The notes under the pieces: generated by a model
Database searches by the model: none
The model's input: the letters and a program-made list of their open reading frames with translations, nothing else
What the model was told of the DNA's origin: nothing
In this document: positions 770 to 57,302 of the stretch, in pieces
How the letters are laid out: each line of letters begins with the position of its first letter
How positions within the stretch are numbered: position 1 is the first letter of the stretch
From: Candidatus Bathyarchaeota archaeon
GTDB lineage: Archaea; Thermoproteota; Bathyarchaeia; Bathyarchaeales; Bathyarchaeaceae
Length of the DNA: 64,000 bases
Direction of reading: 5' to 3'
NCBI GenBank assembly: GCA_030608565.1
Contig: JAUWDY010000001.1
Location: forward strand, 15,457-79,456
Program-made: the position numbers and the translations under genes

Positions 770-1027
770 ATTGAAAAGGGAGAGTTTCTGCTTGGATGTT
801 TGCATTAACTTACTCTACCTACCTTTGGGGCAACCTTCTTCATAAAAAGTCTTGTATCATGCATGCATTTACCTCCCACAGTTGAATGTAACACTTTCCC
901 CTTTTTATCTGTCTTGTTTCTCAATAAAATACCTACCCAAACATCCATCTGGGGTCGGTGCTAGCCACAAAAACATCAAATCCTTTTTTTACAAGATAAC
1001 CACCTAGTTTTTCGGCTATTTTCTTTC

Positions 1028-1089
1028 ATGCATGTTTGATGCATGGCATGCATGCAATCTAACGAACCACTAAAACAAATCCATGCATG
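1028..1089. repeat. cluster of three (ATGC)n palindromic motifs
   Basis: catgcatg (1028-1035), gcatgcatgc (1046-1055) and catgcatg (1082-1089), just downstream of the peptidase stop codon. Confidence 0.8.
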
Positions 1090-1096
1090 GAAGATG

Positions 1097-3028
1097 TTAG
1101 AGGTTTTCGATCTGCACTGGCTCAACTGGATCGGCTAGCTTGAAGCCGAAGATCTTTGAGTAGAAGTAGAGTTCAGCTTCAAGTGAACGTTTAATATTTT
1201 TGGCTTGTCTAAAACCGTGTTGTTCACCGTCAAACGGGAGATAAGCTACCGGTAATCCCCTCTCACGTAAGGCGTCAACCATTAGCTGAGCTTGGCTGGG
1301 AGGAACGACCTTGTCCTCAAGTCCTTGGAACAGGATCATTGGACATGAGATTTGATCGACGAAGTGAATCGGCGAACGTTCCCTGTAGAGGTCACGCCGC
1401 TCAGGATAGGGACCTATCAACCGATCCAGATAACGTGACTCGAATTTATGAGTATCTTTCACAAATGTTTCTAGATCGCTGAGCCCGAAATAGCTTGCTC
1501 CTGCCTTGAAGACGTCACGGAACGTGAGAGCACATAACGTTGTATATCCTCCAGCACTACCTCCACGAATGGCAAGTCGATCACTATCAACTTCCCCCTC
1601 TTTGACTAGGTAGAGGGCTACATTCACACAATCATCCAGATCAACAACACCCCACTGACCATTGAGCCGTTGCCTATAAGCACGACCATATCCACTGCTG
1701 CCTCCATAATTTACATCAACAACTGCGAATCCACGGCTGGTAAAATATTGGATCTTCCAGGAAAGTACAGTTGAAGCAGCACCAGTGGGTCCACCGTGAC
1801 TGATGACCAAAAGTGGCGGAAGCTCTCCAGATGAACCAATGAAATCACCATTTTTTGGAGCATAAAAAAAGGCATGTGTTGTGAGCCCCTTCTCAGTTGG
1901 AAACTCAATTGCGCTTGGGACAGACAGATATTCAGAATCAACCTGTACATTGCTGGCTCGCCGTAGAATCTCAGTCTGAAGTGTTGCCGGATTAAGCTTG
2001 ATAATTGACCATGGCTCGTTTGGTGCTCCAGCTATGAAAACTGCTAGCCCTGGCGATGCATGTAAGCTCCGAATATCCGTGTAGGGATTCTGTATTTTCT
2101 CTGTTTTGCCTGAGATAGTGTCTAAACTTGCCAGATGCCAGACTCCCCCTTTTGTGTATGTGCATATGATGTTGTTTGCAGACTCGAAGGCGTAGGTAGA
2201 TATTCCAAAGACCCATTGTGGGTAACTAAAATCGGCTTGCATCTTGCACAAACACTCAGCTTGTCCATCAAGCCGGCGATAGAGATTCCACCAACCAGAG
2301 CGGTCTGAAATGAAGTGTAAAACTCCCGCTGCAGACCATTCTGGCTGAAGGATGGATTCGTCCTTGCCACCGGCAACGCGTTCGGCATTCTTCAGTGTAC
2401 CGTCAGCCCTTAACTCACTGATCCAGAGTTCTGTTCCATCCCAAGGCATGTTAGGATGGTTCCACGTAAGCCAAGCAAACCGCGAGCCATCAGGGCTAAG
2501 GCGAGGAGACGAGTAGAAATCATTCCCGGAAACTAGAACCCGGCTGTCATTGTTGTCCTTGAGATTGATGCTCACTAAAGCGTTTTCAGCTTGGCGAGTC
2601 GAAACTCTGTGATCTTCGCGCACACAGATTAAACGACTTCTGTGGTGATCAATTATGATGTCAGCATAACGAAGATCAGCCTTAGGAGTTATAGGGTGTG
2701 GTGTAACTCCAGGGTCCAGTTGATAAATTCGCTGGTCTTCAAAATTAGAGAAGTAGATCGTGCCATTGCTAACATTGTACATACCACCCCCATACTCATG
2801 CACGCGTGTTCGAGCGTTTAATGGGGGTGGTGTCATGTCCGAGATATTTCCTTCTAGCGTCCGTCGAACTATGACATACCGTCCTCCCTCATTCGGGCGC
2901 ACCTCAATCCAGTAGATGTCCTCCCCATCAAGAGCCATATAACCAAGCCATATAGTCTTGGAAGCAACCAGATCTGAAGTGATTGGAGATTCCCAAGAAC
3001 CGTATGGCGCTACCTTTGGCTTGCCCAT
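1097..3028 (-). CDS. S9 family serine peptidase (prolyl oligopeptidase / acylaminoacyl-peptidase-like)
   Basis: 643 aa. The C-terminal alpha/beta-hydrolase domain has the nucleophile elbow GGSAGGY and a distal His (GEQHGF). The long N-terminal region is propeller-like. Confidence 0.85.
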   Translation of the reverse strand: MGKPKVAPYGSWESPITSDLVASKTIWLGYMALDGEDIYWIEVRPNEGGRYVIVRRTLEGNISDMTPPPLNARTRVHEYGGGMYNVSNGTIYFSNFEDQRIYQLDPGVTPHPITPKADLRYADIIIDHHRSRLICVREDHRVSTRQAENALVSINLKDNNDSRVLVSGNDFYSSPRLSPDGSRFAWLTWNHPNMPWDGTELWISELRADGTLKNAERVAGGKDESILQPEWSAAGVLHFISDRSGWWNLYRRLDGQAECLCKMQADFSYPQWVFGISTYAFESANNIICTYTKGGVWHLASLDTISGKTEKIQNPYTDIRSLHASPGLAVFIAGAPNEPWSIIKLNPATLQTEILRRASNVQVDSEYLSVPSAIEFPTEKGLTTHAFFYAPKNGDFIGSSGELPPLLVISHGGPTGAASTVLSWKIQYFTSRGFAVVDVNYGGSSGYGRAYRQRLNGQWGVVDLDDCVNVALYLVKEGEVDSDRLAIRGGSAGGYTTLCALTFRDVFKAGASYFGLSDLETFVKDTHKFESRYLDRLIGPYPERRDLYRERSPIHFVDQISCPMILFQGLEDKVVPPSQAQLMVDALRERGLPVAYLPFDGEQHGFRQAKNIKRSLEAELYFYSKIFGFKLADPVEPVQIENL

Positions 3029-3182
3029 CTTTGATTACCCGTATTTCTATATGGGAGAAATGCGTAAATAATTTGCATGCATGCACACCATATAGAAAAC
3101 TGCTAAGATCGATCGATTTTAACTTGTTATGTGAGTATTTGCAAAGTCGATATATCGCACGCTAAACTATTTCTGAGATTGT

Positions 3183-5314: not shown

Positions 5315-5391
5315 TTAAGGAGTCACTGAAAAATCATTAATACAGACATCCTTAAAAAAGTATGCTCAAGAGCGCTTGATTTGAAGCCGCA

Positions 5392-5566
5392 ATGCATGCA
5401 TAGAGTAAGATATAAGGTGTTAACTTTTCTAACTTCTAATTGTCGTTTCACTTTTATCTAACTGGAGCAAATATACATGCATGCTCACCTTTATAGCAAC
5501 CCAAAAGTGACCGAAATCCCCTATCCTTTTCATGTACTTTTCTTCTGCTTGTCATCATGCATGCAA
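5392..5566. repeat. cluster of three (ATGC)n palindromic motifs
   Basis: atgcatgcat (5392-5401), catgcatgc (5476-5484) and catgcatgca (5557-5566), in the 500-bp non-coding gap upstream of the stomatin gene. Confidence 0.8.
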
Positions 5567-5822
5567 AAATATAGGTTTTCACATTGGTTTTACACATAAA
5601 TGATTGGTTTTTTCCTATGATTTAGACTTGATAATTTTTTGTCAACTAGCGGCTCACAATTTTTAATTTGGAAAACTAGAGAAAATCCAAAATCTATGTG
5701 ACAAGTTGTGAACACCTCTCTTCAGACTCTCTTTCAGCTTCTGTGGTTACTTTTTTAATATCCATGCATTGAATGTATTAAAATAGAAGTGTTAGCTCGT
5801 GACAGCTGTGAGTTGATAGTCG

Positions 5823-6071: not shown

Positions 6072-6487
6072 AATGCATGCATTCAAACGATGGCGAAGCG
6101 TCTCTTTGTCTAAACCAACACAATCTTTTGTTGAGATATCTAGTGAACTTTCTAAATTTCTAAGAAATAACTTATTCAGAAATATGAATTAGAAAATTAA
6201 GTATGATTTTTCTCTTGTCAAATTCTACAGCTGCTCGAGCGCTCTTCCTTTTTAATTCATTTCTCAGTTTCATCCTTAAGATCTATGCAGTCGCAGCTGC
6301 GATAACTCTCGCTGCAACCTCTATCCATTTTTTGCGTTGAATAAACTCCACATCCCCCAACAATACTTTGGTTCCAATATTGACGGAACTGTCAACTTTC
6401 ATTCTGACGAGCCATTCATGACGCCGATTGTTTGAATAAAAGTTCATTATTGATCAACCTGTCATGCAAACGCGTTCATTGAGGACT

Positions 6488-7735: not shown

Positions 7736-7771
7736 GCAACGACAAGACTAATGCATGCCTGTGGGTGCGAA

Positions 7772-8631: not shown

Positions 8632-9153
8632 TTGGAGGTTATGTACACCAAGGCTAAAGCGATAATAAGAAATAGTCTCTTGCATGAATGCCTGTCTATG
8701 CCTCGCGAGATATCTTGTGGAGCCGTTGTATTCAAGAAGAATCAGGAAGTAAAATATCTTCTCTTGCACTACGAGGAAGGTCATTGGGACTTCGTAAAAG
8801 GTAATATTGAACCGAATGAGAGTGAGAAGGACACAGTCATTAGAGAACTTGAAGAAGAGACCAGCATCATCGAAGCCCAGTTCATTGACGGCTTCAGAGA
8901 GAAGATAAGCTATTTCTATAGAAGAGGAGGCAACACCATCTACAAGGAAGTAGTCTTCTTTCTGATTCAAACACGAGAAAGCAGGGTTGCGTTATCCAGT
9001 GAACACGTAGGATACAAATGGTTAAGTTACCAGAAAGCTACAGAAAGACTCACTTTTAACATTGCTAGAAGCCTATTGAAAAAAGCACACCAGTTCTTAG
9101 AAAATCAAGATATGCATGCACAAGTGGAGAGAACGAAAAAGGCCTTGGATTGA
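8632..9153 (+). CDS. NUDIX hydrolase
   Basis: Nudix box GHWDFVKGNIEPNESEKDTVIRELEEETSI (Gx5Ex7REUxEExGU). The true start may be the internal MPREISCGAVVF. Confidence 0.85.
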   Translation: MEVMYTKAKAIIRNSLLHECLSMPREISCGAVVFKKNQEVKYLLLHYEEGHWDFVKGNIEPNESEKDTVIRELEEETSIIEAQFIDGFREKISYFYRRGGNTIYKEVVFFLIQTRESRVALSSEHVGYKWLSYQKATERLTFNIARSLLKKAHQFLENQDMHAQVERTKKALD

Positions 9154-9849
9154 TCATGCATGCATTTTCGTAGCCTTTTTCGACGCACGTGTCAAAATGT
9201 TTTGAAGCTGAGTTATACTGGAAATCGTGAAATCTGACGCTTTCTGCAATTCATTTTTTCTTGCTTCGTAAGTGACGAGACCTACTGTTGTGATGCCTAA
9301 TTCTTGTGCGGGTTTGAGTTCTCTTCCCATGTCCCCTATCACAACAGTATCGTCGGGACTGGACCTAGCTATGGCAAGTGCACATCGATAGAGTTTCCTT
9401 CTTTGCTCATGATAAGGAAAAAGAGGAAGTGAAGTCAGTCCGAAATGTTTAGCTGTCACATCTCGCGTAACAATGTCGCGAAATAGCTCATCGATGCCAA
9501 AGAACTTCAATTCTTCACTGACCTCTGCCGGAGTCTCTCTTGAAGTGACGCACATGAGTGAGTTTTTCTTGGATAGAGTCTTCAATGTAGACTCTGCTCC
9601 TTCTCTAAGCACCGAAAAGCGATATCTCTTGACAAAAGCCGCTGTCCAGTATTTGACTGCCTTATTGGTGAGTCCCAGTCCCAATTCCTTGAACACATCG
9701 GTGTAAGAAGGGAATTGAACACATAGCTGCTTAACCTTGCTTTTCGAAACAGTTATTCCGAAATGATTAACGGTGTCGTATATCACTTCTATTTCTCGCT
9801 GATTAATGTCAATCAGCGTCCCGTCGAGATCAAAAAACAAAGATTTCAT
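9154..9849 (-). CDS. HAD-superfamily hydrolase (phosphatase-like)
   Basis: Motif I FFDLDGTLID and motif IV-like VVIGDMGRE. It converges on the NUDIX gene with no spacer. Confidence 0.8.
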   Translation of the reverse strand: MKSLFFDLDGTLIDINQREIEVIYDTVNHFGITVSKSKVKQLCVQFPSYTDVFKELGLGLTNKAVKYWTAAFVKRYRFSVLREGAESTLKTLSKKNSLMCVTSRETPAEVSEELKFFGIDELFRDIVTRDVTAKHFGLTSLPLFPYHEQRRKLYRCALAIARSSPDDTVVIGDMGRELKPAQELGITTVGLVTYEARKNELQKASDFTISSITQLQNILTRASKKATKMHA

Positions 9850-10387: not shown

Positions 10388-11407
10388 ATGTCGCACCAAG
10401 TTCAAGAAATTGAAATAGATAAAATTCATCACAACAAACTCAATCCAAGGCTGGATATAGACTCTCAAGAACTCAATGAACTGGCAGAAACCATTAAGGA
10501 AGTTGGCTTGCTTCAACCGATTATTGTTCGACCAATTGAAAAAGGAGACTACGAAGTTGTTGTCGGGGAAAGACGATATAGAGCTGCTCAACAGGCCGGT
10601 CTAAAAACTGTAAGAGCGTACGTCCGAGACTTCACAGATGAAGAGGTTGTAGAGCTGAATCTAATAGAGAATGTCCAGAGAGCAGATCTCAGTGCAGTAG
10701 AAAAAGGGAATTGCTGTAAGAATTTGATGGATAAATATCCCAAAAGATATCCGACGCTAGCAGCAGTTGGTGGTAGAATAGGAGTTTCTGGCACAACTGT
10801 AAGAAGCTGGCTTCAACTAGTCGAAGCACCTTTGGAACTTCAGAAAATGGTGGCGCCAGCAGCTAAGATAGGGGTTCCCAGAGAATCTGGAAAAATAGAT
10901 TGGGACACTGCAGTAACAATAACTCGACGTGTTAAGCAGCCCGAGAGACAAGTCGAAATCGCTCGAGAAATCGCAAGTAAACCAATCTACAGAAGAGAAG
11001 CAAGGGAAGTTATCGCCAGAGCTGCAATGGAACCTGAGAAGCCGATTAAGGAACTAATCAAAGCAGTTGTTGAAACTCCATATGAACTTCCTTTTAGACT
11101 ATCCCACATGAAACCTATCCTTAACGGTGTCAAAACTCAGACTTCGAGAAAGGGTATACGAGATCCCAAAATCAAAATAGGCGCCAAGATTCATGCTGCT
11201 GTCTGGGAACCTCATTTTGCGGATTTGATCGTCACTTCAATCAATCGTAAGCGATTAGGAGACTTTACTGAGGAGGATGCCAAACGAGAAGGAGGATATA
11301 CCTTAGATGAATTCCGAAAAGTCTGGATTAAAATTCATGGGAAGTGGGATGAAAATGAGTCTGTCTATGTGATCGGTTTCCAAGCAGAAGAAAAAGAGGA
11401 AGAGTAG
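10388..11407 (+). CDS. ParB/Srx N-terminal domain + HTH + C-terminal ASCH domain fusion protein
   Basis: The ParB box is LNPRLDI..LAETIKEVGLLQPIIVRP...VVVGERRYRAAQQAGL. The C-terminal ASCH-like segment is HMKPILNGVKTQTSRKG...AKREGGYTLDEFRKVWIKIHG. Confidence 0.75.
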   Translation: MSHQVQEIEIDKIHHNKLNPRLDIDSQELNELAETIKEVGLLQPIIVRPIEKGDYEVVVGERRYRAAQQAGLKTVRAYVRDFTDEEVVELNLIENVQRADLSAVEKGNCCKNLMDKYPKRYPTLAAVGGRIGVSGTTVRSWLQLVEAPLELQKMVAPAAKIGVPRESGKIDWDTAVTITRRVKQPERQVEIAREIASKPIYRREAREVIARAAMEPEKPIKELIKAVVETPYELPFRLSHMKPILNGVKTQTSRKGIRDPKIKIGAKIHAAVWEPHFADLIVTSINRKRLGDFTEEDAKREGGYTLDEFRKVWIKIHGKWDENESVYVIGFQAEEKEEE

Positions 11408-11409
11408 GA

Positions 11410-12156
11410 ATGTCTTGGAAAAAAGAGTCGATTATTGTCTTGGTCAAAGCCACCCCGATCTGGAGTGCTTCTCTAGGACGATACACAATCTGTACTGCTG
11501 GAATTGCAGAAGACGGAGGATGGCGAAGGTTATACCCATTTACTTGGAGAACAATCAAGAATAATAACATCAGACTATGGGATTCAATATCAGTTGAAAC
11601 CAAAAAACCATCTAGAGACCAGCGCCCTGAAAGTCGGAAAATAAAGAATGATACAGTTGCGAATCTTGGATGTGCAATAAGCAATAGGGAAAAACGACGA
11701 AAATACTTGAATGGACTCACCGATTCTCAGATTCCTAACGCCACCAAAGAAAAGAAAACACTTTCAGTTATCAAACCCATTCTGTTTGAGTTTTCAGTAG
11801 AAAAAAGGGAGGAAAAAGTTGACCAAGCAACGCTTTATGGAGGGGAGTTCAAAAAAAGACCTTATCACAATATTGGAATTTTCTACAAGTTCAAATGCGG
11901 AGAAAAGGGTTGTGGTGTATGTAGAAAGGTTGGGAAATTCCACATAATGGAATGCTTTGATTTTGGAGCAAATCATCTGTACAGACGGTATGATGACGAG
12001 AATGTTGCAGAAGAAAAAGTTCGTGATAAGTGTTTTACGAAAATGAGATTTGATTATGATTGTTGGTTTGCAATGGGAACTCACAGCCTGTATCCCTTTT
12101 TGAGATGGATGGTTATAGGTCTACTATGGATGAAAAAAGCAATACCTACACCTTAG
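11410..12156 (+). CDS. hypothetical protein, Cys-rich (CGEKGCGVC...H..EC)
   Basis: 248 aa. It starts 3 nt after the ParB-ASCH stop, so it is probably co-transcribed. I recognise no family. Confidence 0.5.
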   Translation: MSWKKESIIVLVKATPIWSASLGRYTICTAGIAEDGGWRRLYPFTWRTIKNNNIRLWDSISVETKKPSRDQRPESRKIKNDTVANLGCAISNREKRRKYLNGLTDSQIPNATKEKKTLSVIKPILFEFSVEKREEKVDQATLYGGEFKKRPYHNIGIFYKFKCGEKGCGVCRKVGKFHIMECFDFGANHLYRRYDDENVAEEKVRDKCFTKMRFDYDCWFAMGTHSLYPFLRWMVIGLLWMKKAIPTP

Positions 12157-12285
12157 AATGCATGCATAGGATTTCTATAAAATATGCGTGAAACGGCTTT
12201 TGCAGATACCTTGCATTTTCATTTCGAAACGTTATATTCTGCTTGACACTATTATGAGAAGTCATAACTCTCATGAGGGAGCGTT

Positions 12286-14190
12286 TTGATTGAATCATCA
12301 TTGAGTTCTCAGATAGAAAGAACTGGAAATATCTTGAGAAAGGGTGCGTCTGATCAGATTGTAGATTATAATAGACGCTTCGAGTCTATCAAAGGCCTTT
12401 ATGACACTTTTCTTGCTGATCTACTTGTGTCAGATTTTAGCTACGAGAAAGCCTATGAGACAGCAAAGAGATTCTTGGGTTCTGACAAAGTAGAGTTTGC
12501 AGCGGTTGACGGTACTGAATACACTCGTCCATTGTTTGACATGGTGATATTTTTTGGAGGTTCATACGCTGCTAGAGGTACTATAGAGTTCAAAAAAGAT
12601 AAACCTCCTAAAGTTGAGTATGCAACTCGCTTTCTTGAGCAAGGAAGAGGAATTTCCAGTTGCATACCTCTTTACGTTAACAAGGTTGTAGAAGTTGACA
12701 AGTCACTGAGTCCCATGTTAGAACTTGAACCCACTAGGATCTCTTTAATTAAGCCTTTGACTGACGAGTCAATAGCAAATAATTCATCGATTGCTTCCTG
12801 GATCATGGCTTTTTCGGAAATCTACCTAGCCTATAAACTAGCATCAGAACCAGAAGAAAACATCAAGATCTTGTTTCTTGACAGAAGTCTAACTTGCATG
12901 CAATCAAGTCTGATGTATGACACTTCTAGGAGGAAACGGTGGAAAACACATGGAGCTCTCTTTGGCTATGAAATTGATGGAGAATCTATCGATATGAACG
13001 ATCTTGCATTTGGAAGACATCGGATTCTTAACAAAGATTTAGGGACACCTTCTCCTAGAGGGGACTATCTAAGGTACAGTATTATCTATCTCCTTGAAGG
13101 AAAAGATTCCCATTCGTCTTTTAACGAAATCTGCAGAGAATTGAGCGTTAAAGATGAGAAGAGACGATCAAGGGTTTTGCGATATATCAAGAAGTCTGTG
13201 AAAGAGAATTATCTGGAAGAGAAAGCAGGAAAGTATAAAGTAAATTCCAAGTATAAAACTTCATGGCAACGACTCAAGAAACTCGTTAACATAATCGGGA
13301 AACAACTCTTTGAAGAGATAGTAGATAAAAATCCTCTTCAGGTAAAGAAGGGAGACAAATTCGATTGGTTGACAACACAAGACATTGCTTTTCTGACATT
13401 GTTTTGCATATACATGTTGGTTGAAGAATGCTGGAATAGAAAGATTCTGCTTTTAGGAATAACTAAGGACACTGCTTCTAGAGATTTCAAGAATCATGTT
13501 ATCCCTGTATTTGTTAATCAAAGAATATGGAAACACGTTGTTGATCAAGACAAATTGAGAGATGTTCCAAACACTGACAGGATGTTTCTTCAATCCATTA
13601 GCCTCTTCAACTACCAGAAAGTGAAGGTTCCTTGGAGTTTAGTGGAATATGACTCTGCCTTTCGAACTATAATCCCTGATCTGAAGAAGCGTATGGGCTA
13701 TGTTAGTGGAGCGATTAGAAACAGGATAATTCCTGAGAGACTCTTCGTCAAATCTTATATTCAGCTTTCTCAAGCAAAATCTGATCCTCAACTTCGCAGC
13801 AACGTTTTGTTCATAGATAGACTAGTTTATCCCGATTTTGATCTCAAGAAGGAATTAAGAGTGTCTTTCAAACAGGATTATGGTGGAGCAACTGAACCTA
13901 TTGATGTTATTGTGTTCAGAGATAAGAATATGGATAATGAGGTTCAGAACTTAGTCATGATAATGCTTGAAGCTATGACTAGCCCCAGTATTCCAGAGGT
14001 TTTTGGACATAACAAGCCTTTATTCATAGCTGACAAGGTGGCTAAATGGCATTATGGTCAGGCGAGGAAAATTATAGATACAACTGGACGATGGATTATT
14101 AACCGTCATGATCTTAGAAAGTTTGTGTTTTACATGAGTACGTTTAGGGAAAGGAGGTCACAAATTGAATCTGCAAGAAGAGAAATTTAA
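12286..14190 (+). CDS. NurA-like nuclease domain protein (large, divergent)
   Basis: 634 aa. The N-terminal EFAAVDGTEY resembles the catalytic (I/V)DGS motif of NurA. It overlaps the downstream HerA-like ATPase by 26 nt. Confidence 0.5.
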   Translation: MIESSLSSQIERTGNILRKGASDQIVDYNRRFESIKGLYDTFLADLLVSDFSYEKAYETAKRFLGSDKVEFAAVDGTEYTRPLFDMVIFFGGSYAARGTIEFKKDKPPKVEYATRFLEQGRGISSCIPLYVNKVVEVDKSLSPMLELEPTRISLIKPLTDESIANNSSIASWIMAFSEIYLAYKLASEPEENIKILFLDRSLTCMQSSLMYDTSRRKRWKTHGALFGYEIDGESIDMNDLAFGRHRILNKDLGTPSPRGDYLRYSIIYLLEGKDSHSSFNEICRELSVKDEKRRSRVLRYIKKSVKENYLEEKAGKYKVNSKYKTSWQRLKKLVNIIGKQLFEEIVDKNPLQVKKGDKFDWLTTQDIAFLTLFCIYMLVEECWNRKILLLGITKDTASRDFKNHVIPVFVNQRIWKHVVDQDKLRDVPNTDRMFLQSISLFNYQKVKVPWSLVEYDSAFRTIIPDLKKRMGYVSGAIRNRIIPERLFVKSYIQLSQAKSDPQLRSNVLFIDRLVYPDFDLKKELRVSFKQDYGGATEPIDVIVFRDKNMDNEVQNLVMIMLEAMTSPSIPEVFGHNKPLFIADKVAKWHYGQARKIIDTTGRWIINRHDLRKFVFYMSTFRERRSQIESARREI

Positions 14191-16015
14191 AGCACGTTTC
14201 ACGGATTTCGATGGAAAGTTTCGGGGAAGGCTTAGTGCAGTAATTCCCAAAATGATGATGGGTGAATCTAAGTTTGTGTCAGCAAGGTTTGATTGCAGAG
14301 TGAAGGTGGAATACCAGAAAGACTTGATGGGTCTTCTGGAAGAGGGTATGCTATTGGCTGTGAGGAATTTCAAACCCTCAGAATCTGGAGAAAGGTTTAC
14401 TCTCATGGAAATTTCCAGAGTGTGGCCAGAACACTTCGGGCTTCGAGGTCTAAGAGATTCAAGTTACTATCCAATGCAATTTGAGATCATAGAACAATCA
14501 GAAGGAGATTGGAGTACAGACGACAAATCTACAATGATGGTGCAAATCAGCTCTATACCAATAAACTATGACCTTTTCTTAAAAGAAGATGATTCATGTG
14601 AGTTCAAGAAAGGTTTCTCTTATCCGGTGATTGCAAGTAAAGCCTACATACTGAACAGTAGTATGATCAATCGCATGTACAACCAGAGAATAATCGAAAA
14701 GATGGCCATCGATGTTTCTGGGACAACTGCGGATGCAAGAGCTGATCCTCGTCTCGGAGTTATTAAGATGTTCGAGGCAAGTAAAGCGAGAATTCCTATC
14801 TACATCGACTTTGAAAGCCTTGTTAGGTATCATTTCGGAGTTTTTGCATTCACAGGTGGTGGCAAGAGCAATTTGACGTCAAATATTCTCAGACGGATTC
14901 TCTATCACACTAAAGACACGAAGGTTGTGATCTTTGACATTAGCTGTGAATATCCATTCCTGCTAATGGATGTCTTTGCTGATCCAAACATATCCTCGAA
15001 GATAATACTTGAGAATAGAATAGATATTGTTCAACAGTTCTACGACTCAATAGTCAAACCAAAGGAATACGAAGGTGACAATAGAGTACTTGAAGGCTTG
15101 AAGAAGATATTTGACTTCAAAGACAGAATTGGCTATTATGCCAAGCCTAAGTTAGTGATCCCAAATTATGCAAAATTCCTAGATGAGCTAAAGAACTTAT
15201 GGAAAGGTTCTGCAGACAAGCCCCATTATGTCAATGCTATTGATGAGATTAAAGGTGCTGTGATAAAATACATGGAAGACAACAGATTCGTGGAGAATCA
15301 ACCAATAGACGAAGAATTTGTCAAATTTATACATGAAAAAGCTTCTCAGGCAGTAAATAAGTTCAAAGTAAGTGACAGGAGCGGTTTGTACGCTTGGGGA
15401 AACACAAGAATTGAGTTGCTTGATGTATTTAGAAAGGCACGAGAAGAGGAGCAAAAAGAGATCAAAGGGTTGACAACCCGCAAGATTCAAGGATTGATTC
15501 AAGGGAGAGAGAGACTTGTATGTATATCCATTTCTGACCCGGCTACAATCAAGAGCATCGTTATAGCGCTGACTCGCAATATGCTTGCCGAGAGAAAGCG
15601 AGAATTCAAAGTGAAACCATACGTTCTATTTGTGTTTGACGAGGCTCAAGAGTTTATACCTGCAGGCGCATCAGGGATTGATGGAAGGTGCTCAGGGAGT
15701 GTTGAGACGCTTCTTAGGCAAGGAAGAAAATATGGTCTAGGAGGTTGTGTGGCAACACAGAGAATAGCTTATCTCAATACTAATGCACTGCAACAGTTAC
15801 ATACATATTTCGTTGGCACATTGCCAAGACCTTATGACAGACAGGTAGTAAGCAGCACATTCATGATTGACCAAGGAATTCTGGAGAAGACTCTTGAGTT
15901 TGCACCTGGTGAATGGCTACTGTCCAGTTACATTGCAACAGGAATTGAGAATGTACCCATTTTCATAAGAGCCGACAATGCAGAGACGGAAATCGAAAGT
16001 TTTCTAAGTTTCTAA
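14165..16015 (+). CDS. HerA/FtsK-superfamily (DUF87-type) ATPase
   Basis: 616 aa. Walker A is GVFAFTGGGKSNLTSN and Walker B is VLFVFDEAQEFIP. It also has the GGCVATQRIAYLN segment typical of HerA. The N-terminal region is barrel-like. Confidence 0.75.
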   Translation: MNLQEEKFKARFTDFDGKFRGRLSAVIPKMMMGESKFVSARFDCRVKVEYQKDLMGLLEEGMLLAVRNFKPSESGERFTLMEISRVWPEHFGLRGLRDSSYYPMQFEIIEQSEGDWSTDDKSTMMVQISSIPINYDLFLKEDDSCEFKKGFSYPVIASKAYILNSSMINRMYNQRIIEKMAIDVSGTTADARADPRLGVIKMFEASKARIPIYIDFESLVRYHFGVFAFTGGGKSNLTSNILRRILYHTKDTKVVIFDISCEYPFLLMDVFADPNISSKIILENRIDIVQQFYDSIVKPKEYEGDNRVLEGLKKIFDFKDRIGYYAKPKLVIPNYAKFLDELKNLWKGSADKPHYVNAIDEIKGAVIKYMEDNRFVENQPIDEEFVKFIHEKASQAVNKFKVSDRSGLYAWGNTRIELLDVFRKAREEEQKEIKGLTTRKIQGLIQGRERLVCISISDPATIKSIVIALTRNMLAERKREFKVKPYVLFVFDEAQEFIPAGASGIDGRCSGSVETLLRQGRKYGLGGCVATQRIAYLNTNALQQLHTYFVGTLPRPYDRQVVSSTFMIDQGILEKTLEFAPGEWLLSSYIATGIENVPIFIRADNAETEIESFLSF

Positions 16016-42318: not shown

Positions 42319-43521
42319 ATGGTTGGCGTCGTTGGAAAACCCAACACCGGCAAGTCCACGTTCTTCTCCGCTGCAACACTAGTTCCAGTTGAGATTGCGA
42401 GTTATCCGTTCACAACCATAAAGCCGAATCGAGGAATAGGCTACGTACGAACCCCATGCGTGTGCAAAGAATTTAACGTAAAAGACAACCCGAAAAATTC
42501 CACATGCATAGACGGAATACGATTAATCCCAGTCGAGTTAATAGACTGTGCCGGCCTCGTACCAGGAGCATGGCAGGGAAGAGGACTGGGAAACCAGTTT
42601 CTAGACGAAATTAGAAAGGCAGACGCCCTCATCCACATTGTGGACGCCGCTGGAACAACGGACTCGGAGGGAAAATTGTGCAAGCTTGGTTCTCACGATC
42701 CCGCAGAAGATGTACGTTTCTTGGAGAAGGAGATGACGATGTGGCTTGCGCAGATATTGAAGAGGGACTGGTCTAAAATCGCTAGAACCGTTGGGTCGGG
42801 TACAGAGGACCTGTTCACTCTCCTCGAAGAACGGTTCAGCGGACTCGCCATAAAGAGAACACATGTCATGGAGGCACTGAGAAAAACAGAGCTTAATGCA
42901 GAAAAACCAATCCTCTGGAGCGACGACGATCTCATCAAGTTTCTCGACGTTTTGAGGAGAATCTCTAAACCCATGCTGATTGCGGCAAACAAAATCGATC
43001 TTCTACCAGCGGAAGAAAATGCTGAACGATTGAAAGAGCTGGACTATACGGTTGTTCCATGCTGTGCAGAAGCAGAGCTGGCGTTGAGGAGAGCCGCAGA
43101 GAAAAAGTTGGTCGACTACAAGCCTGGAGACTGCAACTTTGAAGTTATGAAGCCTAAGGAGCTAACAGAAGTTCAGAATAAAGCGTTAAAAGTAGTTCAA
43201 GAAAGGATACTGCAGAAATTTGGATCCACCGGCGTACAAGAGGCCATTAACATGGCGTTCTTTAAACTGTTGAATATGATTGTCGTTTATCCAATTGAAG
43301 ACCTTGAACATCTCAGTGATCATGAGGGCCGAGTGCTTCCAGACGCATATATTGTGCCCTACGGCACCACCGCACGACAACTAGCTTACTTAATTCACAC
43401 AGAATTAGGGGAAAGTTTCATCTATGCAGTTGAGGCTCATGAAAAGAAGAGAATTGGAGAAGACCATGTGTTAAAGGACAGGGATGTGGTTTCAATAGTA
43501 AGCGCTAAGAAAAGAGGTTAA
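42319..43521 (+). CDS. YchF/OLA1-type P-loop NTPase with C-terminal TGS domain
   Basis: VGVVGKPNTGKSTFF, DCAGLV and NKIDL motifs, with a TGS-like C-terminus. I start it at ATG 42319 rather than the tracked GTG at 42238. Confidence 0.8.
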   Translation: MVGVVGKPNTGKSTFFSAATLVPVEIASYPFTTIKPNRGIGYVRTPCVCKEFNVKDNPKNSTCIDGIRLIPVELIDCAGLVPGAWQGRGLGNQFLDEIRKADALIHIVDAAGTTDSEGKLCKLGSHDPAEDVRFLEKEMTMWLAQILKRDWSKIARTVGSGTEDLFTLLEERFSGLAIKRTHVMEALRKTELNAEKPILWSDDDLIKFLDVLRRISKPMLIAANKIDLLPAEENAERLKELDYTVVPCCAEAELALRRAAEKKLVDYKPGDCNFEVMKPKELTEVQNKALKVVQERILQKFGSTGVQEAINMAFFKLLNMIVVYPIEDLEHLSDHEGRVLPDAYIVPYGTTARQLAYLIHTELGESFIYAVEAHEKKRIGEDHVLKDRDVVSIVSAKKRG

Positions 43522-43536
43522 GTTTCCTTCCTTTCA

Positions 43537-43758
43537 TTACGCTTTTGATCGGACTTCTTTTTCAAGCCAGCCTGTTCTAATATTTTCTTTTCGGTCACGC
43601 GACGTATACGGCTTTATGTCCACAACTGGTGTGTCGTCTACCATGTCGACTCCTCTAACCTTCAATATGTTTCCTTTTCTCTTCAAAAGTTCTACAACAG
43701 TGAAACCTATAGGGTTAGACCTATTAGGATGTCTTGTGGCAAAAATGCCGCGTAAGCC
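43537..43758 (-). pseudogene. C-terminal remnant of a TrmO/TsaA (YaeB)-family tRNA methyltransferase
   Basis: My translation is GIFATRHPNRSNPIGFTVVELLKRKGNILKVRGVDMVDDTPVVDIKPY.., matching the family core. An in-frame TAA (43759-43761) lies directly upstream, and no N-terminal half is found before uppS. Confidence 0.6.
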
Positions 43759-43857
43759 TTAGTACCAAAGAGGTTTCACGTGAAGCGAATAACCCTATCG
43801 ACTTAAGTTCTCTCTTCACTCCTACGCACCCCTCTATAGACTAACCACACGCATATT

Positions 43858-47575: not shown

Positions 47576-47753
47576 GTTTTTTTCTTCCTACGCCGGGTTT
47601 GGCCTGTTCAAGGATTCTTTGAATCAAGTTGTTTCCTTTTGTTGATGAAAAAAGTGGAGGGTCCAGTTCTCTTTGATTCGTCGATGGGTTACCATGTGGT
47701 TTTGCACTTGCATGCATGCAGAGAATGCTTCATACTTGGGATGGTTAGAGCTC

Positions 47754-48461: not shown

Positions 48462-48668
48462 CCCTTCATTGAAGAAATATAGACCAGTTATCTTTCTAAC
48501 TTTTCGTGTATTTTAACCTTAAGCATTTTTTGATTCGTTCGAAAATTGGGGACGCGGTAACATTCTGCATGGAAATGTTGTCATCGTTTTTCTCGTTCGA
48601 GTTGGAGAACTTGTGTTTGTTTTGCGTAAAATCTCCAGTAATCTTCTGAATATGCCTAAAAATGTTGG

Positions 48669-48944: not shown

Positions 48945-49036
48945 TGGTGGACCGGGCGGGATTTGAACCCGCGGCTTCCGCCTTTTTCGGCTTGGCACGC
49001 GAAGGCGGCGTTCATACCAAACTGAACTACCGGCCC
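48945..49036 (-). tRNA. tRNA-Ala(CGC) with a 14-nt canonical (37/38) intron; CCA encoded
   Basis: GGGCCGG TA GTTC AGTTTGGTAT GAAC G CCGCC TTCGCG[tgccaagccgaaaa]A GGCGG AAGCC GCGGG TTCAAAT CCCGC CCGGTCC A CCA. The G3:U70 identity pair is present. Confidence 0.85.
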
Positions 49037-49125: not shown

Positions 49126-49160
49126 CGTATTCTCTCTTATAGACCCCCCTATAGCCCCCC
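49126..49160. repeat. copy 2 (inverted) of the ~30-nt repeat shared with 25926-25957, with a local tandem TATAG-C6/7 duplication
   Basis: The + strand reads CGTATTCTCTCTTATAGACCCCCCTATAGCCCCCC, 90-125 nt upstream of the tRNA-Ala 5' end. Confidence 0.85.
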
Positions 49161-52220: not shown

Positions 52221-52384
52221 AAGCAGAAAAAAGGGGAGTTGGCGGGAGACATCTCCACCATAGTAAAGATCTAACCATATTGTTATTGTCTACATGTTCT
52301 CATCGGAGTCTATGAATAATCTTATATTTTCGTTTTTGCTGAAATGCTGTGGCTAATTTCCATCTGCTAGGAGGAAGGTTGTTT

Positions 52385-53762
52385 ATGGCTACTATTAGAG
52401 AGGTTCCGCGCAAGGTTCGTCGTTTTGAAAGGATCGGGGCTCATACTCACATAAAAGGACTGGGTCTCGACGAAAATTCGAACGCGGTTAAGATTAGAGA
52501 TGGGATGGTTGGGCAAGAAAAAGCTAGGGAAGCAGCTGGCTTGATTGTGAAGATGATTCAAGAGGGGAAACTAAGTGGCAAATGCATTATCTTGGCGGGT
52601 CCACCTGGAACGGGCAAGACGGCTATAGCGGTTGCTGTTTCTAGAGAGTTAGGTGCAAACGTTCCGTTCATCCAAATGAGTGGAAGCGAAATTTACAGTA
52701 GCGAGCGTTAAGAAGACGGAGATACTGCTCGGGGCAATAAGGAAGTGCATAGGCGTTGAAATCCATGAGATACGCAAAGTATACGAGGGCGAGCTCACTC
52801 ACTCCGACATTGTCACGGCGCCGCATCCATACAACCCTTACCAAAAGGTGCCTGAAAGCATCCGTCTCACATTGAAAACAGAAAAAGAGGAAAAAACCAT
52901 CGAGGCAGGAGCAACCATAGCTCAACAAATAATACAACAGAACATTTCTGAAGGGAATATAGTACAAATTGACGCTGAAACTGGAAGAGTAGTCAATCTC
53001 GGTCTCAGTTTGGAAAGCGCGAAAGGGAAAAAATACGATGTGGACACGCGTAGGAAGATACCGCGTCCTGCTGGAAAGGTTTTGAAGGAGAAAGAATTTG
53101 TTTACCCCCTCACGCTGGCAGACATGGATGAACTCAATGTTAAGAGTCGAGCAGGAGGCGGGTTCTTTTCAATGTTCCTTGGAGGAGCCGGAACTAAGGA
53201 GATAGACACTGAGATTCGGACGATGGTGGATCAGCAGGTAAAGAAACTAGTTGATGAGGACAAGGCGTTCATTCATCCAGGCGTACTGTTCATCGACGAC
53301 TCACATCTCTTAGACCTTGAAGCCTTCAGCTTTTTGGGCCGAGCCATAGAAAGCGAGCTAGTGCCCATCATTATCCTCGCCACTAATCGGGGCATAGCAC
53401 GAATCCGAGGAACGGACGTGAAGAGCCCCCTGGGCTTTCCGTTAGATCTAGTCGACCGCTCCGTGATCATTGCAACCCACGAGTACGATCCCGACAGCAT
53501 CAGAGAGATACTGCACATACGATCCATTGAAGAGAAGGTAAAGCTAAAGAAAGATGCTCTCGATAGACTCACCGAAATTGGATCCAAGAGTTCTCTCAGA
53601 TACTCAGTTCAATTGCTCAGCCTCGCGTCACAAAACTCAAAGTCGATGGGACATGAAAAAGTAACCGTTGACGATGTGGAAAAGGTTGACAATCTTTTCA
53701 TGGACATTAGAGAAGCTGCGGAACACCTTAGAAGGTACGAAGAGAAAATGATGGTACACTAG
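52385..53762 (+). pseudogene. TIP49/RuvB-like AAA+ ATPase interrupted by a +1 frameshift near 52706
   Basis: ORF 52349..52711 ends ..PFIQMSGSEIYSSER*. The next frame continues (A)SVKKTEILLGAIRKCIGVEI.. Removing c52706 gives GSEIYSSE|VKKTE, the conserved TIP49 junction. Walker A is GPPGTGKT and Walker B is LFIDDSH. Confidence 0.75.
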
Positions 53763-55229: not shown

Positions 55230-55661
55230 ATGAAAATGCGAACGTTAACAATAAACGATTATGAAGATATGGTCAAGCTCTGGATAGAATCGGCTCTCCC
55301 CTTTAAATCTAAAGGTCGAGACCGTAGGCAAGCCATTGCAGACCAAATAGAAACAGACCCTAGTCTCTTTTTAGGAGCATTCAAAAATAACACACTAATC
55401 GGTGTTGTAATTGGAAGCTACGATTATAGGGGAAAAGGCTGGATCAATCGCTTAGCTGTGAATACAAAATACCAGAGACAAGGCATTGGTCATCGTTTGA
55501 TCACCAGCATGGAGAAAATTCTGAAGGAAAAAGGCGCAGTGGTTACTTGTGCTCTAATTGAGGAGACAAATCAAGAGTCAATTGCAATTTTTGAAAAACT
55601 AGGATACGTCTCTGAGAAATCGATCCTTTATTTCAGCAAGCGAGAAAGCGAAGATGCATGA
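55230..55661 (+). CDS. GNAT family N-acetyltransferase
   Basis: Acetyl-CoA loop RLAVNTKYQRQGIGHRLI. Confidence 0.8.
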   Translation: MKMRTLTINDYEDMVKLWIESALPFKSKGRDRRQAIADQIETDPSLFLGAFKNNTLIGVVIGSYDYRGKGWINRLAVNTKYQRQGIGHRLITSMEKILKEKGAVVTCALIEETNQESIAIFEKLGYVSEKSILYFSKRESEDA

Positions 55662-55664
55662 CGA

Positions 55665-57293
55665 TTATCTGGAACTAGAAACGTTTTTCCTCAGCAATGT
55701 ATCTCGAGCAACTGGCAATTTCTCAGGATAGTCCAAGAAATAGTGAATCCCCCGACTTTCTTTTCGCATCATCGCGGAATCGATGATGAGTTCTGCTACC
55801 AATGCCATGTTTCGTAGCTCGACAAGGTCTGTTGTAAGGATGAAATCCCAATAATACTGGTTGATCTCTTGTTGCAGGAGGGTTATGCGTTTTTTGGCGC
55901 GGGTTAGACGTTTGTCAGAACGCACGATTCCTACATAGTTCCACATCAAACGGCGAATCTCATCCCGATTTTGAGTGATGACCACTGCTTCATCAATGTC
56001 CACGGCTTCTCCCGGTTCCCAAGGAGCAAATGGTTGTAAAGGAATCTCTTCCTTCAGCAATCTTTTGCATCTCTCAGCCGCATGGTCGGCACAAACTAAA
56101 GCCTCAAGTAGAGAGTTGCTGGCCAATCGATTGGCTCCATGAAGACCTGTGCACGCTGTTTCGCCGATTGCAAACAGATTTTTCACATCTGTCTCACCAA
56201 CAATAGTGGCTTTTACACCCCCGCAACAATAGTGGGCTGCAGGGACCACCGGGATCGGATCTTTTGTGATGTCAATTCCGAATGATAGACATTTCTCATA
56301 GATCCCTGGAAATCGAGATCGAATGAACTGATGATCTTTAAAGGATACGTCGAGAAGAACATATTCATCTCCGCTTTTCTTTAACTCCTGATCAATAGCT
56401 CGAGCAACCACATCTCGAGGAGCTAGCTCTTTCATCGAATGGTAATGGTCCATAAACCGTCTTTCACGCTTATCTTGAAGAATGGCTCCTTCGCCTCTGA
56501 GGGCTTCTGAGATGAGAAAGGGTGTTTCGTAGGGACGATATAGACATGTTGGATGAAATTGGGTGAACTCCATGTTCATAATTGTGGCTCCGGCTCGATA
56601 TGCCATGGCGATTCCGTCTCCAGTGGCTATGTCTGGATTGCTTGTGTGAAGATAGACTCTTCCCATTCCACCCGCTGCAAGCACAGTTACCTTTGCCACA
56701 AAATTTCGAATTGTTGAATTCTCTCTGTCTAGAACATAGCATCCTCCACACTGACTATCTTTTACGACAAGGTTAATTGCGATGTGATTCTCAAAAAGCT
56801 TGATGGCTGGATGCCTACTAATGGCATTCAACAGAACATCTTCGATCTCTTCACCCGAAAGATCTTTCGCGTGGACGATTCGTCGCTTTGAATGCCCGCT
56901 CTCCATTCCTAGGTCAAGTTCACCTGTTGCTCTCCTAGAAAAATCGACCCCAAGCGTCATGAGTTCTTGAACACGTGCAGGGCCTTCTCGTACAATCTTT
57001 TCAACCACGTTTCTCTTACTTAATCCGTTGCCACAAGCCAAAGTGTCTCTAATGTGGTTCTCAAAAGAATCCGCTGGAGAAAAAACAGCTGCAATTCCAC
57101 CTTGCGCATAATTTGTGTTCGATTCAGCCTTCTCTTTCTTGGTAACAATCACTACTTGGGCGTGGTCAGCTATCTTTAATGCAAAGGATAACCCTGCGAT
57201 TCCGCTTCCGATCACAAGTACATCTGAGACAACATCTGCCGCGTCCATATGATTCCCACAGAGCTCAAATAAGATGCTTTTGCTTGCATGCAA
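55665..57293 (-). CDS. nadB: L-aspartate oxidase
   Basis: DVLVIGSGIAG, and a succinate-dehydrogenase/fumarate-reductase flavoprotein-like core (RPYETPFLISEALRGEG, HYCCGG). Confidence 0.85.
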   Translation of the reverse strand: MHASKSILFELCGNHMDAADVVSDVLVIGSGIAGLSFALKIADHAQVVIVTKKEKAESNTNYAQGGIAAVFSPADSFENHIRDTLACGNGLSKRNVVEKIVREGPARVQELMTLGVDFSRRATGELDLGMESGHSKRRIVHAKDLSGEEIEDVLLNAISRHPAIKLFENHIAINLVVKDSQCGGCYVLDRENSTIRNFVAKVTVLAAGGMGRVYLHTSNPDIATGDGIAMAYRAGATIMNMEFTQFHPTCLYRPYETPFLISEALRGEGAILQDKRERRFMDHYHSMKELAPRDVVARAIDQELKKSGDEYVLLDVSFKDHQFIRSRFPGIYEKCLSFGIDITKDPIPVVPAAHYCCGGVKATIVGETDVKNLFAIGETACTGLHGANRLASNSLLEALVCADHAAERCKRLLKEEIPLQPFAPWEPGEAVDIDEAVVITQNRDEIRRLMWNYVGIVRSDKRLTRAKKRITLLQQEINQYYWDFILTTDLVELRNMALVAELIIDSAMMRKESRGIHYFLDYPEKLPVARDTLLRKNVSSSR

Positions 57294-57302
57294 ACTTTTC
57301 GG

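Follow-up and report, generated by a model that had tools for sequence, protein, structure and literature searches.

Why does one short palindrome, built from the tandem tetranucleotide (ATGC)n and typically reading ATGCATGCAT, recur in the non-coding DNA of an uncultured archaeon, and what has placed it there? The DNA in question, called the window here, is the whole analysed stretch of 64,000 nucleotides (nt) from contig JAUWDY010000001.1 of a Candidatus Bathyarchaeota archaeon, in which an in-phase (ATGC)n sequence of at least 8 nt is counted as a run. The answer that we tentatively prefer is that the runs are scars left at points where the chromosome was broken and joined again. The window encodes aIF2-beta, aIF1A, both subunits (A and B) of topoisomerase VI, ELP3, RIO kinase, FtsZ and an intron-containing tRNA, and it is therefore of archaeal origin. 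A search with its Obg-like GTPase gene (42238-43521; one genome per species) gave matches almost all from Candidatus Bathyarchaeia metagenome-assembled genomes (MAGs), and the closest locus, L002, shares 85-95% DNA identity with the window between 34.1 and 50.1 kb. About 150 related loci, about 1.9 Mb in total, served for comparison. An assembly artefact was ruled out, because independent Logan contigs of SRR14876854, which match parts of the window at 99.98% identity, reproduce its structure, and because a double motif between a HAD and a NUDIX gene recurs in another sample (L169); it is further unlikely in that a 10-nt repeat is shorter than assembler k-mers.

Enrichment and distribution of the (ATGC)n runs

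Seven exact copies of the 10-mer ATGCATGCAT are present in the window (at 859, 5392, 6073, 9156, 12158, 23964 and 42131), while dinucleotide shuffles lead to an expectation of 0.05. The enrichment claimed by the initial annotation also holds under Markov models of orders 3 to 5 on the window, with 14 strand counts against 0.27 at order 3 (about 50-fold), 0.51 at order 4 (27-fold) and 3.1 at order 5, where the motif itself contaminates the model, its training sequence being this very window. For the core TGCATGCA, 34 occurrences stand against 3.1, 5.2 and 16 expected at orders 3, 4 and 5, and ATGCATGC gives 26 strand matches against 1.86 expected. Among the 8-mers enriched over the order-3 model, those with the highest counts are all phases of the ATGC repeat; the GC-rich palindromes CGGCGCCG and GCGCGCGC have ratios above those of the ATGC phases, but occupy 3-4 sites each, and another tetranucleotide repeat that was checked, GATCGATC, occurs a single time. 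Of the 136 papers that contain the string ATGCATGCAT, none of the 30 listed deals with a genomic motif of prokaryotes, and the searchable literature yielded no palindromic intergenic motif in Bathyarchaeota.

Altogether, the window contains 20 runs, which vary in phase and range from 8 to 13 nt in length. Every variant listed at the outset exists, although 12168 was a typing error for 12158, and 1028, 5557, 20675 and 57295 had to be moved by 1-10 nt to 1027, 5556, 20674 and 57285. The core TGCATGCA is contained in 15 of the 20 runs, at 17 palindrome positions (each 12-mer holds two), and shows a strong A...T extension (30 of 42 flank positions), beyond which the flank profile around the copies has nothing conserved. 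Relative to chance, one-mismatch copies are far outnumbered by exact ones. The motif had correctly been described as self-complementary and alternating in purines and pyrimidines. As well, the window carries 72 alternating purine-pyrimidine runs of at least 10 nt against 29 +/- 5 in first-order Markov simulations, an excess of about 2.5-fold that persists inside genes and without the (ATGC)n runs. A cruciform potential, which had also been proposed, is not borne out, since the 10-mer folds at 0 kcal/mol with neither hairpin nor cruciform stability, and the 12-mer reaches -1.8 kcal/mol.

The motif is not part of a larger element. An all-versus-all BLAST of the +/-125 nt around the copies, together with a repeat search, found shared flanks only where neighbouring copies overlap, and inverted repeats flanking the copies are not above background; for this reason, and with no flank conservation beyond A...T, a MITE and the suggested element like repetitive extragenic palindromes (REPs) were both given up. 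Rfam at the gathering threshold recognizes just two tRNAs in the window, and the motif matches no known RNA. When the runs are masked, ATGCAT occurs 30 times against 28.3 expected and GCATGC 24 times against 20.5, so that the isolated sites, at their expected frequency, give no sign of restriction-driven selection on a single site, and the link once drawn to the NsiI/Ppu10I (ATGCAT) and SphI (GCATGC) sites through such selection finds no support. No DNA methyltransferase gene was recognized in the window. In the same masked sequence, GGCC, GATC and CTAG are under-represented (0.57, 0.73 and 0.82 of expectation), CGGCCG is absent, and GCGCGC and GGCGCC are about 1.9-fold over-represented, all of which may be traces of restriction-modification systems.

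Fifteen of the 20 runs lie outside open reading frames (ORFs), which leave 14.4% of the window sequence uncovered (binomial P = 1.7e-9), and three further runs (9112, 9155 and 57285) fall within the first or last few codons of ORFs. The intergenic bias is real, as had been stated, with only the runs at 12895 and 23964 deep in genes, and both are compatible with chance. At 23964, the HEPN protein aligns with its relatives without gaps and reads QCMHS where they have YSVHN or YSMHN, with about 5 substitutions in 15 nt on a background of 79% identity. An insertion is ruled out there for want of any indel, and a chance extension of pre-existing Met-His codons (ATGCAT) is compatible with the alignment. 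As previously observed, the runs keep close to gene ends: 11 of 20 are located within 50 nt of a stop codon, and several copies lie between convergent genes. Two gaps had been credited with three copies each, which is right for the divergent spacer 5315-5822, while the spacer 806-1096 carries four runs plus a 7-mer.

The runs are unevenly spread along the window. The first 25 kb, with 3.0 of the 9.2 kb of non-coding DNA, holds 17 of the 20 runs (P = 3e-5), whereas the 39-kb conserved part has 3, and most of its 6.2 kb of spacers (25-64 kb), including about 35 gene ends, are without the motif. The first 25 kb are a shuffled region that includes a defence island, and with such a spread the motif is no general signal of intergenic DNA or gene ends. 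The remark that the motif occurs in both island and core is therefore true but misleading.

Copies at deletion junctions, truncations and module borders

Comparison with related genomes showed that the motif is lineage-restricted and placed at junctions. In three genes, it stands exactly between stretches that are contiguous or far apart in the outgroup gene. A Thg1-family gene (tRNA-His guanylyltransferase; Pfam Thg1 and Thg1C) is intact in L003 and L066, between ATP-grasp and DUF7121 genes, while in the window and L002 the sequence TGCATGCATGCA lies exactly between Thg1 remnants in place of about 590 nt, with both flanks still aligning. The product of the window HAD gene ends with ...TKMHA*, whereas the 318-aa HAD-ArsR fusions of relatives (P0242, P0247 and P0248; 74-85% identity) go on with ...TKTISKSIEE.... 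At the DNA level, ...ACGAAAA is followed in the window by TGCATGCATG and then ATCAATCCAAGG, versus CTATCAGCAA and then ATCAATTGAAGA in L168, and after this 10-nt replacement 9 of the next 12 nt match L168 before homology is gone. The third case is the C-terminus of the protein of the convergent NUDIX gene next to it. Representative homologues align to query residues about 23-160, family similarity ends at about residue 159-161 of 173, and the copy at 9112-9120, 34 nt from the HAD copy, encodes residues 161-163 of the atypical tail. The same HAD/NUDIX double-motif structure is found in L169, which comes from another sample and is 97% identical.

In the 16 kb shared by the window and L002, there are three motif sites, of which one is common and two differ, and the motif at L002:9273 stands in place of about 17 nt of window sequence. 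At the sites of 47709, 9155 and L002:9273, the outgroups have no TGCA, CATG or ATGCAT. A 171-nt segment around the copy at 42131 was considered as a remnant of an extra gene of L003, which was rejected since the two share no similarity. L002 also possesses about 3.7 kb of extra DNA (14058-17740) relative to window 48619-48642, the borders of which are without an (ATGC)n run.

Relatives carry both the SPFH-NfeD operon and the S9 peptidase gene in unrelated surroundings, and share the gene or genes plus the promoter alone. Homology of these modules stops at 5393 (motif 5392-5401), 3076 (motif 3074-3085) and 1090 (motif 1082-1089). Elsewhere in the SPFH clade, in a separate branch, each of four lineages has its own upstream sequence, and all four sequences begin at one and the same nucleotide (+/- 3). 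At this upstream junction of the SPFH promoter, L076 has ATGCATGCATG, L081 has GCGCGCGCGCG, L071 has CGCGCG nearby and L068 has nothing. Similarly, L150-L152 carry GCGCGCGC overlapping the peptidase stop codon, at the junction equivalent to that of CATGCATG in the window, and GCGCGC or CGCGCG is present at junctions of L085 and L077/L078.

This coincidence was counted for the 27 interior homology breakpoints of the window against all fetched loci. Six of them lie within 15 nt of a run, compared with a mean of 0.85 and a maximum of 4 in 1000 trials of controls shifted by 60-500 nt. When all loci are taken together, 22 of 424 breakpoints have an (ATGC)n run (8 nt or longer) or a (GC)n run (6 nt or longer) no more than 12 nt away, versus 4.25 +/- 2.1 in shifted controls; about 15 of the 22 are independent, the rest being redundant among near-identical loci. 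Above-chance numbers of (ATGC)n runs occur, among the roughly 150 loci, only in the window (3.1 per 10 kb), L002, L068, L076 and L074. L085, whose SPFH protein is 96% identical to that of the window, has 0 runs in 20.8 kb.

Runs of (GC)n, 6-14 nt long, were observed in spacers and homology borders at L081 105-116, 461-471 and 2817-2825, L068 10681-10694, L150 1950 and 3992, L085 12158 and L154 5192. These loci belong to related Bathyarchaeia lineages without (ATGC)n, except L068, which has both kinds. A palindrome, TCAAGCGCTCTTGA (5366-5379), lies between the motif and the TATA-like box of SPFH-NfeD and is kept in relatives at 85-91% DNA identity; it is probably an operator. Moreover, unrelated IMG/VR viral contigs contain dense (CATG)n/(ATGC)n clusters in non-coding regions of alternating purines and pyrimidines (L157 9990-11098, L160 10553-10983, L161 989-1137 and 2298-2427), and those of L161 adjoin tRNA genes and terminator-like hairpins.

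The individual copies and associated remnants are as follows, with a strand given only where one applies.

858-868: CATGCATGCAT, in spacer 806-1096, 53 nt upstream of the glycosyltransferase start (805, minus strand); same in Logan contig L148
1027-1056: cluster downstream of the S9 peptidase gene, made up of CATGCATG (1027-1034), ATGCATG (1039-1045) and GCATGCATGCA (1046-1056)
1082-1089: CATGCATG, 8 nt past the peptidase stop; peptidase homology of L149 and L150 stops at 1090 and 1098
3074-3085: TGCATGCATGCA, directly upstream of the peptidase TATA-like AATTATTTAC; homology of L151 stops at 3076
5392-5401: ATGCATGCAT, upstream border of the conserved SPFH-NfeD promoter module; homology of L085, L075, L072 and L070 stops at 5393
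5476-5484: CATGCATGC, second copy in the divergent spacer 5315-5822
5556-5565: CATGCATGCA, third copy in this divergent spacer, with a one-mismatch copy at 5760-5769
6073-6082: ATGCATGCAT, beginning 2 nt past the stop of an 82-aa GIY-YIG gene
7751-7758: ATGCATGC, in a 36-nt spacer between two co-directional uncharacterised genes
9112-9120: ATGCATGCA, where the family similarity of the NUDIX gene (8632-9153, plus strand) stops; codes M-H-A
9121-9154, minus strand: 34-nt fragment between two copies, the first 12 nt of which extend the HAD-ArsR frame of relatives (9 of 12 identical)
9155-9165: CATGCATGCAT, replacing exactly 10 nt of the HAD-ArsR fusion and supplying the stop (ATG CAT GCA TGA) of the HAD gene (9154-9849, minus strand)
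12158-12167: ATGCATGCAT, beginning 2 nt past the stop of the island gene 11410-12156
12895-12902: TGCATGCA, inside a 634-aa island gene; probably a chance match
20674-20682: ATGCATGCA, between the convergent island genes 20093-20641 (UDG-like) and 20735-21202
23964-23973: ATGCATGCAT, inside the TPR-HEPN_LA2681 gene
24427-24435: GCATGCATG, 4 nt past the HEPN stop, between convergent genes at the right edge of the island; homology of L153 and L154 stops at 24412-24418
42131-42140: ATGCATGCAT, in the middle of the 171-nt segment, which is absent from L002 and bounded by AACTA direct repeats
47709-47720: TGCATGCATGCA, junction of the internal deletion of about 590 nt in the Thg1-family gene; same scar in L002
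47576-47753, minus strand: Thg1-family remnant, with the start codon and 4 codons on one side of the motif and about 45 degenerate 3' codons on the other
57285-57292: TGCATGCA, 11 nt past the sodium:solute symporter stop, upstream of a flavoprotein gene
60114-60121: GCGCGCGC run in a divergent spacer; the sister motif, which replaces (ATGC)n in related lineages

NCBIfam offered no names for the uncharacterised genes adjoining motif copies, and a link of the motif to the GIY-YIG gene was rejected, as no motif-bearing related locus has a homologue of that gene.

Several copies lie in or at the edge of a defence island of lower G+C (10388-25734), which between 10.4 and 24.4 kb encodes ParB_N-ASCH, DUF87/HerA-like ATPase, DUF6036 nucleotidyltransferase, DUF4062, TIR, UDG-like, RNase HII-like and TPR-HEPN_LA2681 proteins, as well as several ORFs without a family match. 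The island is closed by an integrase-like ORF (24475-25734), whose Pfam matches to HTH_7 and Phage_integrase are weak and sub-threshold. Four island spacers contain members of a repeat family of about 40 nt (TTTCTAAGTTTCTA...TTTAA...; 16001-16040, 17900-17939, 19999-20038 and 20699-20738), and a second, TTAGAA-rich family adjoins it at 16060, 17950 and 21795; both families may be island-specific promoter or terminator modules.

Some features elsewhere in the window are recorded here in their own right. The gene for glycine cleavage P-protein subunit 1 (32547-33950, minus strand) has one in-frame stop at 33267-33269 (...NPAYLGFI*TQAEDIAE...), which could be due to a pseudogene, a sequencing error or recoding. 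A TIP49/RuvB-like AAA+ gene (52349-53762, plus strand) is split into overlapping ORFs in different frames (52349-52711 and 52680-53762); a frameshift, a pseudogene or an error may lie behind the split. The spacer 43522-43857 between the convergent GTPase and UppS genes has 342 nt, compared with 11-30 nt in most relatives, and a 90-nt stretch of it (43656-43745) is 82% identical to the distant locus L043; the spacer has no Rfam match, and its folding energy is not unusual. Finally, a 23-nt inverted repeat pair, TATAGGGGGGTCTATAAAAGAGA, is located at 25926-25948 and 49131-49153, 23 kb apart and 96% complementary. One copy adjoins the intron-containing tRNA gene (48945-49036), and the pair may represent a shared promoter element.

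A proposed junction scar weighed against its rivals

We tentatively favour, with somewhat less than even confidence, the reading that an (ATGC)n run, typically ATGCATGCAT, is a lineage-specific self-complementary filler or scar of break repair or segment joining, which is kept where it does no harm. On this reading, a short tandem-repeat filler would be laid into the chromosome at points of breakage and re-joining, among them the sites of internal deletions, truncated genes and the edges of promoter-plus-gene modules. Purifying selection would remove scars elsewhere, and they would build up in non-coding DNA and dead genes, most densely in the flexible part of the genome, where rearrangements would be frequent and tolerated. 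The repeat sequence would presumably be set by a lineage-specific enzyme activity, for which two routes can be envisaged. One is a staggered cut at ATGCAT or TGCA followed by fill-in; A^TGCAT, when filled in and re-ligated, would give exactly ATGCATGCAT, and (GC)n could arise by an analogous fill-in of GCGC- or CGCG-type cuts. In the other, a self-complementary repeat would be synthesised reiteratively on DNA ends. Such a repeat would then act as microhomology, by which any two ends could pair and be ligated, and the (GC)n at equivalent junctions of sister lineages would reflect a different enzyme specificity. In vitro, thermophilic A-family and archaeal B-family polymerases are reported to produce repeats of short palindromes that include the recognition site of a nicking enzyme present alongside them (PMC10520511). 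We prefer the scar because it covers most simply the Thg1, HAD-ArsR and NUDIX cases, the module borders, the alternative repeats and the variation in L002, and because it also covers the self-complementarity, the harmless placement, the concentration in the shuffled region and the patchy distribution among lineages. In addition, the variable phase and length of the runs and the lack of conserved flanks beyond A...T fit a repeat filler better than a fixed binding site.

Several points weigh against a scar. Just three or four events could be polarised with outgroups; the other cases consist of the motif coinciding with BLAST alignment ends, which cluster near gene ends in spacers, and the shifted control corrects for this clustering only partly. 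Of the 27 window breakpoints, 21 are without the motif, and so are most downstream junctions of the SPFH operon. At none of the comparable sites has a lone ATGCAT or TGCA simply been duplicated in place by 4 nt, and a 10-for-10 nt replacement would be an odd outcome of break repair. Moreover, the grouping of 3-5 copies in one spacer, as in 806-1096 and 5315-5822, resembles an array of binding sites and also occurs in the unrelated viral contigs, and the motif is kept in L002 (47709) and in L169, so selection on it is possible. No nuclease, polymerase or ligase was identified, and to our knowledge no prokaryotic repair pathway leaves a constant filler.

The same junction data (Thg1, HAD-ArsR, breakpoints) would be explained if the motif came first, as a fragile or targeted site, for example a breakage-prone palindrome of alternating purines and pyrimidines or a sequence on which a lineage-specific nuclease, recombinase or mobile element acts. 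Rearrangements would then start or end at existing copies, for instance through recombination between copies with one copy left per junction; this we consider possible but rather unlikely. The initial annotation had offered a recombination or nicking target among its functions, and of those offered it comes nearest to the motif's position at deletion junctions, truncations and homology breakpoints. The divergence of four lineages from one nucleotide (+/- 3) onward in the DNA before the SPFH promoter suggests a recurrent hot spot, the out-of-phase copies clustered at 1027-1089 could mean that one site was hit repeatedly, and an integrase-like gene adjoins the 24427 copy. However, the outgroup Thg1 and HAD-ArsR genes have no motif-like sequence at these places, so that copies would need to have formed inside these genes beforehand; the presence of (ATGC)n and (GC)n at the same junction in sister lineages is hard to reconcile with a sequence-specific recombinase; and 10 bp is below the known core-site size of tyrosine recombinases. 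Alternatively, ATGCATGCAT could be the putative site of a lineage-specific dimeric DNA-binding protein with a boundary, regulatory or nucleoid role between transcription units, kept by selection at the upstream edges of promoters and after genes, which we regard as unlikely. A perfect 10-bp palindrome with the A...T extension of TGCATGCA, the excess of exact over one-mismatch copies, the arrays of 3-5 copies in several spacers, the retention of copies in L002 and L169 and the similar non-coding arrays in unrelated phage contigs would all suit a protein site, and many copies lie 0-33 nt upstream of TATA-like boxes. Yet the distances to these boxes (0, 10, 12, 18, 21 and 33 nt) are inconsistent, phase and length vary to the point that some copies are CATGCATG only, with another symmetry centre, the genes next to the copies are unrelated in function, the motif is missing from most spacers of the conserved part, and a sister lineage has (GC)n in the same place. 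A binding site would also leave the position at a deletion junction and the overwritten coding sequence unexplained.

The remaining candidates appear weaker. A structural non-B element, in which (ATGC)n or (GC)n flips to Z-DNA or absorbs supercoiling between transcription units, would account for the interchange of the two repeats at one junction, both being alternating purine-pyrimidine sequences, and for the general excess of such runs (72 versus 29 +/- 5). It is nonetheless very unlikely, as 8-12 bp runs that include A-T steps form Z-DNA poorly, the 10-mer is not stable as a hairpin or cruciform, one repeat dominates instead of a mixture of CA/TG, GC and others, and the runs gather in the flexible 25 kb rather than at promoters generally. 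Neutral tetranucleotide slippage tolerated outside genes, with a coincidental association to junctions, seems more improbable still: variable lengths (8-13 nt), a placement outside genes and the somewhat enriched 7-nt runs there would be expected of a microsatellite, but slippage is inefficient with as few as two to three units, a single tetranucleotide is affected (GATCGATC is found once, and the other top 8-mers are GC-rich palindromes), the events are 10-12 nt replacements and a 590-nt deletion without unit gains, and the breakpoint association is significant. That the motif is a transcription terminator or 3'-end signal, as its position within 50 nt of a stop codon in 11 of 20 copies and between several convergent genes might suggest, can hardly be credited when it has no hairpin potential, no consistent oligo-T was seen after it in the spacers, three copies occupy a divergent promoter spacer, about 35 gene ends in 25-64 kb do without it and it is wholly missing in close relatives. 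The general terminator or insulator proposed by the initial annotation likewise finds no support, given the mostly motif-free spacers of 25-64 kb and the missing hairpin and consistent T-tract. We give as little credence to a DNA uptake or self-recognition sequence spread by biased uptake and recombination, like the DNA uptake sequence (DUS) of Neisseria and the uptake signal sequence (USS) of Haemophilus. The lineage specificity, the (GC)n 'dialect' in relatives and the density of about 1 per 3 kb would be in keeping with it, but no uptake specificity is known in archaea, and the junction positions would be left unexplained. Genes and the conserved part of the window also hold hardly any copies of the motif, which sets it apart from DUS and USS, both common in core genes (PMC1939737).

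Returning to the scar, a wider claim would be that some Bathyarchaeia heal breaks and stitch segments together by adding an enzyme-specified self-complementary repeat, (ATGC)n here and (GC)n in sisters, which at present is an improbable though conceivable extension. If true, repeat addition to DNA ends would be a natural form of 'linker tailing' with one constant palindromic scar per junction, and it would be the force behind the reshuffling of promoter-plus-gene modules and the growth of defence islands. A scar would make the runs a readable record of breakage and re-joining points in this archaeal genome, would hint at an end-joining or DNA-healing activity, so far undescribed, in a major group of uncultured archaea, and would provide a simple marker of recent deletions, truncations and acquired modules in MAGs. 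Through gene-content correlation, the contrast between (ATGC)n and (GC)n in sister lineages would help to trace the enzyme responsible. If the motif is a protein-binding boundary element instead, it would be the site of a new lineage-specific regulator, and under either of these two readings the popular terminator view of post-stop palindromes would be wrong here.

Comparison with known palindromic and repeat systems

The cyanobacterial palindrome HIP1 (GCGATCGC) resembles the motif as a short perfect palindrome that is tens- to hundreds-fold over-represented, lineage-specific and of unsettled function. HIP1 is abundant inside genes and quasi-periodic along the genome. Unlike HIP1, the motif is a tandem tetranucleotide of variable phase, nearly confined to non-coding DNA of the flexible region, and located at indel and rearrangement junctions; it exceeds Markov expectation more than 10-fold, as a HIP1-like palindrome does, but lacks the abundance in coding DNA. 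HIP1 has been linked to cognate methyltransferases, with a proposed drive from mismatch repair (PMC4390886), and alternative palindromes replace it in exceptional strains (PMC4390886 and PMC5861425).

REPs and bacterial interspersed mosaic elements (BIMEs) are extragenic palindromes, often just past stops or between convergent genes, with several per spacer and a lineage-specific distribution (PMC2817692). The motif is likewise extragenic, with several copies per spacer, but it is 8-12 nt long, without hairpin stability or conserved flanks. REPs are imperfect palindromes of 20-40 nt, which form hairpins and carry a conserved GTAG head. No gene for their associated transposase, RAYT (IS200/IS605-like), was found in the 64 kb and a further 3 kb of the genome that were read.

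Excision footprints of Tc1/mariner elements, target-site duplications and restriction fill-in also resemble the motif, in that they leave a constant short palindromic insertion at a repaired break; judging from enzyme chemistry, fill-in of a 4-nt 5' overhang at A^TGCAT would yield exactly ATGCATGCAT. The motif differs from them in that no orthologous single site is expanded by 4 nt. A full-length element with matching ends did not turn up in the about 1.9 Mb of related loci, where no dedicated search for one was made, and we know of no footprints of the Tc1/mariner kind as a feature of prokaryotic insertion sequences. Integron attC sites share with the motif a palindrome just past stops that borders single-gene modules, whose contexts differ between genomes. 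However, attC sites are structured sequences of 50-150 nt that are recombined by IntI, and their cassettes are usually promoterless and co-oriented, while the motif has 10 nt without structure and its modules have their own promoters and mixed orientations. An integron integrase was not found in the window, where the sole integrase-like ORF is that at 24475-25734 with its weak Pfam matches.

The small dispersed repeats (SDRs) of cyanobacteria, 21-27 nt long, were reportedly seen by Elhai et al. in 2008 to be gained at new places in orthologous comparisons without a transposon-sized vehicle (cited in PMC4390886); the motif differs from SDRs as a simple tandem repeat of 8-13 nt. In eukaryotes, TGCATGCA and CATGCATG are known as the plant RY element and an apicomplexan motif, which are bound by the B3 and AP2 families. 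These elements have the same sequence in another domain of life, but their B3 and AP2 binders are eukaryotic, with no evidence for such a binder here. An upstream TGCATGCA motif has been described as a promoter element in Cryptosporidium (PMC3734150).

The ab initio synthesis by polymerase and nicking enzyme in vitro is like the motif in producing tandem short palindromes with a nuclease site (PMC10520511), and, if operating in the cell, it would account for a self-complementary repeat whose sequence is set by an enzyme; so far, such synthesis is known solely from the test tube. Taken as a whole, we rate the motif as belonging with the short, highly iterated palindromes, from which it is set apart by its place at deletion and rearrangement junctions and by the alternation of (ATGC)n and (GC)n between sister lineages.

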